From the IMG/VR virus record IMGVR_UViG_3300021400_000042: a stretch of DNA of 64,000 bases. The stretch is one strand, 5' to 3'. Position numbers and translations under genes: made by a program. Positions 37,995 through 39,737 of this stretch are shown piece after piece. Under the pieces are notes generated by a model. The model did no database searches. It saw only the letters and a program-made list of their open reading frames with translations, and was not told the DNA's origin. Position 1 is the first letter of the stretch. The number at the start of each line of letters is the position of its first letter. The stretch is from a virus.

Positions 37995-38154
37995 GTTCTT
38001 CATAGTTTTTCTCCTTTTCACGGCAGAGCCGGAACTGCCTTAACAAAACATACACTGGGCAAATAATTGGCGGCATTACGGAACAGCCTAAGAACCGCAA
38101 GGGGAACACGCGGATAACACGTCTACCCCGGACGAACCAGTTATCCGCACTGTG

Positions 38155-38296
38155 CGGAGCATAGCTCAATGGTAGAGCGGCGTGTATTCAGTAGCGATGG
38201 CGTGTCACATTGACGATACGTTGCTGCGGAGGGATCCGGACCAGTCACCCGGTTTTCAATTCAGTGACGGTGCAGGTTCAAGTCCTGCTGCTCCGC
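38155..38296 (+). ncRNA. tRNA-like module A (142 nt)
   Basis: Acceptor CGGAGCA/TGCTCCG, D arm AGCTCAATGGTAGAGC, T arm GCAGG-TTCAAGT-CCTGC. About 93 nt replace the ~22-nt anticodon and variable region. Confidence 0.55.
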
Positions 38297-38611
38297 TTAT
38301 AGAAAACAGGGAGGGGGTGAACAGCTTTTATGAATTCGGTGACTATCTTCCGTTTCGGATCTTTCGGATATGTGTCAACAGGAAAAGTATTACTGAGACT
38401 ATGGCTTTTCGTTGGCATGATATCGCCGGAGACAGTGAAAAGCTGGCATCCTATTTAGATTAAGCCCATGTAATGAAGAGCTTCTCGTTTAATAACCCAA
38501 AGATCCGAACGATGGTGAGTATTACATGGGCGCATAAAGCTCAACATGTGAATCGATAGTGCGTGTCTCCTGGCAGTGGAAATACAGGAATCACGACACG
38601 CACTCTTTTAT

Positions 38612-38707
38612 CGGAACGTGGACAAGAGGTCAAAGTCGCAGAGCTGAAAGAGAGATTGATCTGACAAAGGAAGCTCAGAGACGCAGGTTCAAATCCTGCC
38701 GTTCCGA
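38612..38707 (+). ncRNA. tRNA-like module B (96 nt)
   Basis: Acceptor CGGAACG/CGTTCCG, T arm GCAGG-TTCAAAT-CCTGC. A 5-bp stem GAGCT/AGCTC closes a 26-nt loop. Confidence 0.5.
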
Positions 38708-38865
38708 AGCGGGGTGGAGAACAAATTATCCGCGCACCCAGTGACAAGTAGCGATAACACTTGTGAAGTAGGGGGACTAAAGTACACGGCCTCTTGAAAA
38801 ACAGGTGGCGAAAACGTCAGGCCAACCTTGCGGGATGAGTGGTTTCGGTTACCTGAACCGACCAT

Positions 38866-38944
38866 CGGAACGTAGCTCAAAGGTAGAGCAGGGAATATGG
38901 CGGCCGAGGAAGCCCCGATGCAGGTTCAAGTCCTGTCGTTCTGA
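38866..38944 (+). ncRNA. tRNA-like module C (79 nt)
   Basis: Acceptor CGGAACG/CGTTCTG, D arm AGCTCAAAGGTAGAGC, T arm GCAGG-TTCAAGT-CCTGT. The 29-nt central segment has no canonical anticodon stem-loop. Confidence 0.5.
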
Positions 38945-39321
38945 AGTAGTTGGCAGCGCGGAGAGCTGCAGATCTTGCCACACCCAAAATAGACCCGCGC
39001 ATAAATAAGGGGCTGATCCTGCCGGTACAAACAGAAACGGAATGTTCAGCAGGATACCGTGACAACATGAGAGGATGTTGACAGTCTGGAAAAAGAAGCG
39101 ATGGACAGGCTACACAGTGAGGGAAAACACTTGAGCGAAAAAACACGCAACCGGGCGTAACACGGCGGTCGAGTCAGGATGTACACGGCGGGGCCGATAC
39201 GTTGGCCGTGGCATGTCGGAAGTTTATGCAGGTTAGAGTGAACCGACGAAAAATAGTAACGACGTAACCGCAGAGGGCGAACTGTTCACCCGTCCCTCTC
39301 AAAACTAACGGGAGAACTTTT

Positions 39322-39426
39322 CGGAACGTAGCTTAAAAGGGAAAGCAGCGGCGGAGGATTTTGTCATGTTCCTAAATTATCAGTTGTGCAAGCCGCAGGA
39401 TGCGCGTTCGAGTCCCGCCGTTCCGA
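39322..39426 (+). ncRNA. tRNA-like module D (105 nt)
   Basis: Acceptor CGGAACG/CGTTCCG, D arm GCTT-AAAAGGGA-AAGC, T arm GCGCG-TTCGAGT-CCCGC. The stem GCGGC/GCCGC closes a 39-nt loop. Confidence 0.55.
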
Positions 39427-39685
39427 TTGCCCGTCCGGTCATGTTTGAACCGGAAATTGAAACCGATTGCACTTTGGCAGCACGTCAGCCGGTCGAAGAG
39501 CGGCAGCAGTCAGGAGCGGCTATACGGCCTGCGTTTCGCTGTGAACGAAATCACAGAGCGCGAGGTTATGTTCGGTTTGTAGCGCGTAAAGGGTCCTGAA
39601 GACCGGACGATATACGGGGAAACCATATACAGCGACCGGAGCAGGTGAGAACCGACGATCTGGGGTTGTTAAACGGTGCATCGGT

Positions 39686-39707
39686 ATGGGAGTACCCGTT
39701 TTTCTCT
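39686..39707 (+). terminator. hairpin (AUGGG-AGUA-CCCGU) plus UUUUUCUCU
   Basis: Read directly, just upstream of the polymerase RBS. Confidence 0.4.
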
Positions 39708-39737
39708 GAGATTTACAAGTGATGAAGGAGGCAACCT

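Follow-up and report, generated by a model that had tools for sequence, protein, structure and literature searches.

The question raised by the viral record IMGVR_UViG_3300021400_000042 is what occupies 1.7 kb of its DNA, positions 37995-39737, between the genes for a single-stranded DNA-binding (SSB) protein and a family-A DNA polymerase (PolA). The whole stretch analyzed, 64,000 nt in length, is referred to below as the window. An earlier reading of the letters alone (the original prediction) had stated that no genes fill this gap and had proposed that it encodes one giant structured RNA, possibly of the GOLLD or ROOL class. The existence of the gap was confirmed: it lies between the end of the Enc34-type SSB open reading frame (ORF; Pfam PF10991) at 37994 and the start of the PolA ORF at 39738. 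It is filled by a shuffled array in which four anticodon-less tRNA-shaped elements are combined with a gene of 42 codons and with structured, conserved spacer RNAs. The view that the bulk of the gap is non-coding, RNA-gene territory linked to tRNAs in a phage, is supported, and comparison of sequences supports the presence of conserved, covarying RNA structure in parts of it. The best explanation, which we regard as somewhat more probable than its negation, is that the array consists of lineage-specific, recombination-shuffled RNA cassettes within the promoter-proximal 5' untranslated region (UTR) of polA, which would be processed at the tRNA-shaped elements.

The Rfam tRNA model (RF00005) matched the gap four times, with 41-46.7 bits against a gathering score of 29, where a single tRNA-like sequence had been predicted. 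These tRNA-like elements (TL1 to TL4) have a cloverleaf frame with a 7-bp acceptor stem, a D arm with GG and a T arm with the T-loop TTCRANT. The D-loop GG and the TTCRANT loop were kept in all four, and the acceptor CGGAACG/CGTTCCG with discriminator base A was common to three. The frame is of the same type as that of phage tRNA-Ile(UAU) and tRNA-Pro genes, with acceptor stem, D arm, T arm and elbow nucleotides retained. The Rfam alignments contained local-end inserts of 19-88 nt in place of the anticodon arm; the anticodon stem-loop is replaced by a core made up of an insert of ~30-90 nt, unrelated from element to element, plus a closing helix. None of the four has the set of features of a functional decoder, i.e., a 5-bp anticodon stem and a 7-nt loop with U33 and a purine at position 37. 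Because the anticodon stem-loop is replaced in this way, the TLs cannot decode. ARAGORN rejected three of them and accepted TL2 alone, as a 98-nt tRNA-Leu(aag) with a forced loop without U33.

TL1 (38155-38296, 142 nt, 41 bits; this and all other features of the gap are given for the + strand) has the acceptor CGGAGCA/TGCTCCG and, in the position of the anticodon arm, an 88-nt insert with two hairpins, where the syntenic element of contig L268 has a 31-nt core instead. TL2 (38612-38707, 96 nt, 46.7 bits) combines the acceptor CGGAACG/CGTTCCG-A with a 3-bp D stem and a 45-nt core. TL3 (38866-38944, 79 nt, 45.3 bits, no ARAGORN call) has a 30-nt non-canonical core; the elements at the orthologous position in L001 and L003 measure 90 nt and have an unrelated core. 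TL4 (39322-39426, 105 nt, 42.5 bits) shares its acceptor and a GCGGC/GCCGC closing stem with phage tRNA-Ile(UAU), and a 39-nt insert replaces the 7-nt anticodon loop. It is 99% identical in L001 and L003, in which its flanks are ~70-80% identical or unrelated. Diverged TL4 relatives of 105-106 nt were present in the tRNA arrays of six further contigs, and the canonical parent form was found in L087 and L003, where the acceptor stem of the canonical tRNA-Ile(UAU) is the same as that of TL4.

The least biased comparison of TL frames with their cores was provided by the slots on either side of a conserved spacer, sp2 (38708-38865). The slot upstream of sp2, occupied by TL2 and by syntenic elements in five other contigs, contained cores of 45, 69, 33, 20, 72 and 12 nt, and the downstream slot, with TL3 and its syntenic elements, contained cores of 30, 33, 21, ~110 and 31 nt; within both slots the cores were unrelated in sequence. 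The acceptor stems paired at 7 of 7 positions in each delimitable TL of these slots (the downstream TL of L213 was re-delimited by eye), with a compensated variant, CGAAGCG/CGCTTCG, in L197, and the T stems were paired 5/5 in all. The window and L197 have sp2 modules that are 99% identical next to cores that are unrelated, and the breakpoints fall inside the frames.

A covariance model of the TL frame (R1), which replaced a loose regular-expression tRNA detector that was too noisy, gave an alignment of 37 elements from 11 sources. The paired cells amounted to 95.2%, compared with 31-49% when the partners were slid, and 20 of the 21 pairs changed on both sides; the observed values were reached by none of 500 shuffles. 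The helix that closes the core was mostly retained in this alignment (88% paired, many pair types). Of 96 unique elements carrying the acceptor stem of the frame, 67 failed a strict test for a canonical anticodon arm. These non-canonical elements are 61-152 nt long and form recurrent core subfamilies; their D stem was fully paired in 59 cases and their outer T stem in all 67, and neither pairing was imposed by the search pattern. By these comparisons, selection acts on the tRNA frame and not on the core. The 5' half of the frame was found in 14 viral contigs and in one of 185,579 species-representative genomes, and the 3' half in at least 120 viral contigs. Its canonical members are phage tRNA-Ile(UAU), with the GCGGC anticodon stem of TL4, and tRNA-Pro.

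One tRNA-like subfamily of 85-87 nt (L108, L098, L124, L087:3737-3822 on the - strand, L092:8213-8297 and L090:1665-1749 on the - strand) has a 10-nt perfect palindrome that varies yet stays palindromic (CGUGUACACG, GGUGGCCACC, GGUGAUCACC, GGAGAUCUCC). The central tetranucleotide of the palindrome is unable to pair inside one hairpin. A covarying palindrome was the signature from which symmetric intermolecular kissing loops were inferred in OLE and GOLLD; alternatively, the feature could be a palindrome at the level of the DNA.

The spacer sp2, for which support is strongest among the non-coding spacers, is a structured RNA of ~158 nt that trails a TL. It starts 2-4 nt past the discriminator base of TL2, and its homologs are 99% (L197), 87% (L102), 85% (L268), 79% (L213) and 78% (L091) identical. 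In seven other contigs, a homolog or copy immediately follows the 3' end of a tRNA-like element; the distance to the preceding TL is always 2-4 nt, and another TL comes next in five of six cases. A fold built by hand, with four hairpin helices and a pseudoknot helix (CCGC/GCGG vs UCGC/GCGA), was paired in 94% of the cells, and in at most 52% when the partners were slid. Compensatory changes were observed at four pairs, one of them in the pseudoknot helix, and the resulting seven compensated cells were not reached in any of 500 shuffles. An ORF in sp2 was excluded because of 1-2-nt indels and a flat distribution of changes over codon positions, and sp2 matched no Rfam family. The sp2 model (R2) recovered two diverged copies of its core, L155:605-710 and L087:3633-3738 (- strand), each of which abuts the 3' end of a TL. 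These copies keep the covarying hairpin stem (GGGUG/CACCC, GAGUC/GACUC, CUGC/GCAG), the invariant loop start GAGARCAAAU, the 3' block UGCGGGAUG and the terminal hairpin. The next gene after the copy in L087 is a canonical tRNA-Ile(UAU). A metagenome scan with the sp2 pattern returned mostly unrelated matches and one true new homolog, that of L268. There (11850-12000), sp2 is followed by a strong ribosome-binding site (RBS) and an ORF start (MSKETLRQYKTLRAEL), with no tRNA-like element; the trailer can therefore precede an mRNA too.

The position of sp2, and not its fold, would fit a theta or hepatitis delta virus (HDV)-like self-cleaving ribozyme. Theta ribozymes are minimal HDV-like ribozymes at the 3' ends of phage tRNAs; the class is defined by a G1 cleavage site at the tRNA 3' end, a nested double pseudoknot of P1-P1.1-P2-P3-P4 and a catalytic C in J4/2. 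What sp2 has in common with them is its location, 2-4 nt from the 3' end of a tRNA-like element in gut or rumen phage contigs; its fold differs. The HDV-like nested double pseudoknot could not be threaded at the TL 3' ends, a descriptor search that found the HDV control found nothing at these ends, and no Rfam model of the HDV family or of another ribozyme matched.

To place the gap among relatives, the 80 viral contigs with the best matches to the polymerase were used, and the distance between SSB and polA was measured at 37 loci. This distance was at most 38 nt in 32 of the 37, and R1 matches upstream of the polymerase occurred only in the window and in its nearest relatives, L001, L003 and L004. 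By this comparison the gap is evidently an insertion, absent from nearly all relatives. Conservation and covariation in relatives, as a structured RNA would lead one to expect, were seen in the TL frames, in sp2 and in the sp3 hairpins, while the island as a whole is missing from nearly all of them. The polymerase of L001 is 98% identical, and the parts of its island that align are the leader (97%), TL4 with its flank (~80%, TL4 itself 99%) and the tail (91%); the middle of the island is replaced relative to the window. The islands of L003 and L004 include a canonical tRNA-Ile(UAU) and a canonical tRNA-Tyr, respectively. L002, the closest relative without an island, has the homologs of leader and tail fused into a 155-nt junction, which places the cassettes within the promoter-proximal 5'-UTR of polA. 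Modules of 60-380 nt occur in other orders and combinations in other contigs: sp1, sp2 and parts of sp3 and sp4 recur next to TLs elsewhere, differently combined, and L268 keeps the order TL-sp1-TL-sp2. Such arrays recur in many gut and rumen phage contigs.

The gap had been described as free of credible ORFs. This description agrees with a comparison of ten ORFs of the gap with the PHROG families, which gave no credible match, but it overlooked a conserved ORF of 42 codons with a Shine-Dalgarno sequence inside sp1 (38330-38458; MNSVTIFRFGSFGYVSTGKVLLRLWLFVGMISPETVKSWHPI, preceded by the Shine-Dalgarno-like run GGAGGGGG). The homolog in L268 (11363-11491) has equal length, the same stop codon and no indels. 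The two copies differ at 28 positions, distributed 11/2/15 over the codon positions (binomial P ~0.001 for two or fewer at one position), pN/pS is 0.44, the other frames contain stops, and the Shine-Dalgarno sequence is present in both. Protein searches with the 42-aa product found no family and no homolog besides that of L268. By its pattern of substitutions, this micro-gene is a genuine protein-coding gene. The same third-position-biased, indel-free coding signature was not found in the leader, sp2, sp3 or sp4.

Promoter-like and terminator-like sites are consistent with a transcription unit across the array. A sigma-70-type, promoter-like site (TTAACA-16-AATAAT, 10 of 12 positions matching) was located at 38040-38067 in the conserved leader and was the sole promoter-like match within 37200-40200. 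The promoter block is conserved in L001, L003 and L004 and partly kept in the island-less junction of L002. The leader RNA before the first tRNA-like unit (38068-38154) has an inverted repeat, GCGGATAAC/GTTATCCGC, at 38110-38148 and is 88-97% identical across all four islands regardless of the element that comes next; it showed no coding periodicity and no Rfam match. At the other end, the conserved tail of the polA 5'-UTR (39599-39737) is ~91% identical in L001 and L003 and partly present in the L002 junction. It contains a weak terminator-like hairpin with a T-run (39686-39707), which the terminator scan found where a hairpin and U-run had been noted by eye, and the polA RBS AAGGAGG (39725-39731).

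The mechanism that we propose starts from the leader promoter, which would drive co-transcription of the whole array and polA. Host RNase P and RNase Z, enzymes that require only the acceptor/T/D "top half" of a tRNA, would then cut at each tRNA-like frame. This cleavage would punctuate the precursor into tRNA-shaped small RNAs, spacer RNAs, a micro-gene mRNA and a polA mRNA. The TLs have the make-up of a mascRNA-type processing signal, with the tRNA top half kept and the anticodon region unconstrained. At the level of the DNA, the frame halves of ~25 nt that are common to all units may serve as homology boxes for crossovers, and crossovers within them would swap cassettes between phages.

Several observations speak against this explanation. 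Processing by RNase P and RNase Z is predicted from the kept top half of the tRNA. The covariation in sp2 is modest, coming from 6-8 copies of ~3-4 lineages, and the R1 alignments are model-fitted and lean to the tRNA fold, with a few canonical tRNAs in the set. The hairpin and T-run ahead of polA could terminate the transcript. Finally, some core subfamilies are conserved over many contigs, which fits TLs that are functional products and not mere punctuation.

A reading that goes further, and that we put forward only tentatively, is that the islands are an undescribed modular phage RNA system in which cassette-exchanged cores in tRNA-framed small RNAs, together with the sp2-family trailer, act in trans. 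The trailer could then be a new 5'-cleaving ribozyme or a module for assembly or processing, and the products would be, for example, decoys against tRNA-directed host defences or dimerising RNAs.

It seems unlikely, but deserves weight, that the TLs are themselves a payload, i.e., stable, CCA-tailed mimics of the tRNA top half that serve as decoys or inhibitors of host factors binding or attacking tRNAs. The targets would be tRNA-targeting defence nucleases or toxins that modify the acceptor end, and the turnover of the cores would reflect an arms race. Strong structural selection on the frames while the cores turn over would be expected under this reading, as would several core types conserved in many contigs (one with the covarying palindrome) and the 99% conservation of TL4 between islands with diverged flanks. 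Phage tRNAs that counter anticodon nucleases are described in PMC10264068, but the known anticodon nucleases recognize the anticodon loop, which the TLs lack. Moreover, no gene for a partner protein co-occurs in the window, and the conserved trailers are left unexplained.

That the TLs are tRNA pseudogenes undergoing decay in a tRNA island that evolves rapidly, with the spacers as neutral filler and the conservation due to recent ancestry and recombination, is a doubtful alternative. It would account for the canonical tRNAs in the same islands (Ile-UAU in L003, Tyr in L004), for cores that seem unconstrained in length and sequence, for a gap that is thermodynamically unremarkable and for an island that most relatives dispense with. 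Decay should, however, also hit the acceptor, D and T stems, yet these are 95% paired with 20 of 21 pairs compensated, syntenic orthologs included, and sp2 copies from unrelated contigs, 78% identical overall, still share invariant blocks and helices that covary.

Very little speaks for the TLs as real tRNAs with small introns or inserts, the removal of which would give functional tRNA-Ile, tRNA-Pro and similar tRNAs. The frames do derive from decoding tRNAs, and a single deletion restored a canonical arm in 10 of the 67 non-canonical elements elsewhere, compared with 2.2% of shuffled cores; but no single deletion rescued any of the four TLs of the window. The intron idea therefore fits a minority at most. 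The inserts are far below the size of group I or group II introns, members with 12-20-nt cores are too small for an anticodon arm, and to our knowledge bacteria have no bulge-helix-bulge splicing system. The window encodes no RNA ligase or endonuclease, and no gene for a tRNA ligase, a CCA-adding enzyme or an aminoacyl-tRNA synthetase-like protein was found in it. A few long elements, one of 117 nt in L172 and those of 106 nt in L082, L088 and L083, do resemble real tRNAs with an insert: the L172 element has a tRNA-Pro(GGG)-type loop, UUGGGGU, after 41 extra nt, and another of these elements yields GCGGG-UUAUCGA-CUUGC on removal of 34 nt.

As to the giant RNA, the six inverted repeats on which it had been based are all present. 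The description of the gap as rich in helices was borne out only weakly. Counted within 130 nt, perfect inverted repeats with arms of 8 nt or longer numbered seven, where a first-order Markov null predicts 2.4 (P ~0.006), but 9% of other equal-sized chunks of the window also reach this number. Folding did not bear the description out: twelve 150-nt tiles of the gap had mean folding z-scores of about -0.54 (+ strand) and -0.46 (- strand), and the flanking coding tiles (n = 12) had a mean of -0.97. In foldability, the gap thus exceeds neither chance expectation nor its neighbours. No GOLLD or ROOL match emerged from Rfam when the whole window was scanned at the gathering score, nor when 37900-39800 was scanned with permissive filters up to E ≤ 10. 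The GOLLD model (RF01998), including its conserved 3' domain, and the ROOL model (RF03087) matched neither the gap nor the other islands; HEARO, transfer-messenger RNA (tmRNA) and all other Rfam families gave nothing beyond tRNA in the gap and in three related islands, and ARAGORN found no tmRNA. Nor do the relatives share one fold of ~800 nt or more, as in GOLLD; only patches are common to them. The location beside tRNAs in a phage agrees with GOLLD and ROOL but is not diagnostic. One giant ornate RNA (GOLLD, ROOL or a new class) across the gap is thus barely credible: a phage locus with tRNA-like sequences and a modest enrichment in local inverted repeats would suit it, but there are no large-RNA matches, the z-scores are not better than those of coding DNA, the relatives contain a mosaic of independently assorting modules and not one fold, and a protein gene lies inside. 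A candidate match to the YrlA/bacterial Y RNA family (RF02553) was rejected, as it reached 16-17.5 bits against a threshold of 69 and the D arm alone drove the score.

With the processed cassette array as the preferred explanation, the closest known setting is the phage tRNA island. Phage tRNA clusters are commonly read as codon-supply or anti-nuclease devices. Their tRNA-Ile(UAU) and tRNA-Pro have the same acceptor CGGAACG/CGTTCCG-A, D and T arms and T-loop TTCRANT, and elements of the type found in the window likewise sit in arrays beside canonical tRNAs. Unlike canonical phage tRNAs, the TLs of the window have no 5-bp/7-nt anticodon stem-loop with U33 and have cores of 30-90 nt, and unlike the genes of phage tRNA islands, which are a few bases apart, they are separated by conserved spacers of 150-380 nt. 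In MALAT1 and MEN-beta, the sources of mascRNA and menRNA, and in mitochondrial tRNA punctuation, a tRNA-shaped element marks the site of RNase P and RNase Z cleavage in a longer transcript. By analogy the TLs may be compared with mascRNA and menRNA, in that they keep the top half while the anticodon region is degenerate; the processing of these two tRNA-like RNAs by RNase P is described in PMC11693755. The mascRNA and mitochondrial systems are eukaryotic or organellar, whereas the phage TLs form a recombining array with predicted cleavage. Two non-tRNA small RNAs of phage T4, RNAC and RNAD, are expressed from the T4 tRNA region and their role is unknown (PMC3014915, PMC9697503). They are similar to the TLs, by position and description alone, as non-tRNA RNAs in a phage tRNA cluster; T4 has two such RNAs, whereas the window has a modular array with swappable cores and trailers. 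The function of GOLLD and ROOL, which are encoded by phages or prophages and frequently lie close to tRNA islands, is unknown, and GOLLD sometimes has an internal tRNA. The gap shares with them only the phage and tRNA-island neighbourhood and differs in having no covariance-model match and no single fold of 580-800 nt, and in modules that assort independently. The nearest functional analogues would be tRNA-like processing signals and T4 RNAC/RNAD, and the locus is a new variation on phage tRNA-island biology, not a giant ornate RNA. In the literature searched, no account was found of tRNA frames that lack an anticodon and combine exchangeable cores with conserved trailers.

In the array, non-decoding RNAs are built on a reused phage tRNA frame that is widespread (at least 120 viral contigs) and nearly absent from bacterial genomes; the frame is accompanied by a structured, conserved trailer motif for which Rfam has no family. 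If the frames are RNase P/RNase Z punctuation, bacterial viruses would have an equivalent of the tRNA punctuation of mitochondria and of MALAT1-mascRNA processing; if the TL RNAs or trailers act in trans, they would be candidate new anti-defence or regulatory RNAs. Short frames shared by RNA genes can also act as recombination joints in mosaic evolution. Annotation will probably overlook elements of this type or report them wrongly as odd tRNAs (ARAGORN: Leu-aag, Arg-acg or "???").

The remaining spacers contain further hairpins. After the micro-gene, a hairpin with perfect 11-bp arms, GCCCATGTAAT/ATTACATGGGC (38464-38531), has the lowest folding z-score of the gap (-1.96), and L268 has GCCCGT/ACGGGC at this site, a compensatory change of A-T to G-C. 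Directly 5' of TL2, the hairpin AGTGCGTGTC/GACACGCACT followed by TCTTTTAT (38558-38611) is terminator-like and is kept in L268 with a shorter loop. The spacer sp3 (38945-39321) is non-coding: its alignment with L001 and L003, at 69-75% identity, has numerous indels and lacks codon periodicity. Its conserved hairpins at 39016-39055 and 39273-39298 differ between the window and L003 by compensatory changes (ATCCTGC/GCAGGAT vs GTCCAG/CTGGAC; GAGGG/CCCTC vs GACCG/CGGTC), and its 3' half recurs adjoining TLs in L116, L121, L102 and L109. The 5' part of sp4 (39449-39527) is a second trailer module. It matches L197:3963-4039 at 77% identity and L102:1200-1277 at 87%; the L102 copy comes immediately behind a TL.

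Other searches of the locus were negative within their scope. Comparison of its DNA with GenBank phages found no similarity, and antisense complementarity of cores and spacers to the phage's own genome was limited to chance-level matches of 12-17 nt. A 10-nt complement between 38315-38324 and 39282-39291 is roughly what chance would give and is not conserved in L268. GGAGG Shine-Dalgarno-like runs in the cores were dropped as ribosome-binding sites, hairpin strands being the simpler explanation. A replication origin in the gap is unlikely because relatives without the island retain the same replication module.

The phage itself is best explained as temperate and of the siphovirus type, with an anaerobic, Bacillota-like host. 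A lysogeny module at 31745-34361 (- strand), with a serine integrase (533 aa), a metalloprotease-like ORF and a repressor-like ORF, indicates that it is temperate, and the replication module also contains ThyX, a C5 DNA methylase and the anaerobic NrdD/NrdG, a set that fits an anaerobic host. A 668-aa ORF at 26099-28102 (- strand) had no PHROG match at E ≤ 0.001. The window also carries a complete diversity-generating retroelement (22735-24968). Its variable repeat (22735-22862) forms the 3' end of a tail-fibre-like ORF of 2009 aa and its template repeat (23463-23590) is 88% identical; the Avd gene lies at 23022-23432, the reverse transcriptase at 23670-24968, and an RT-2 RNA (RF03077, 146 bits; 23590-23819) abuts the template repeat. 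A GP20-a RNA motif (RF02991, 57.9 bits) was located at 2552-2650, upstream of an ORF of the structural module, and a canonical tRNA-Tyr(GTA) at 62567-62650, just past the large terminase gene.

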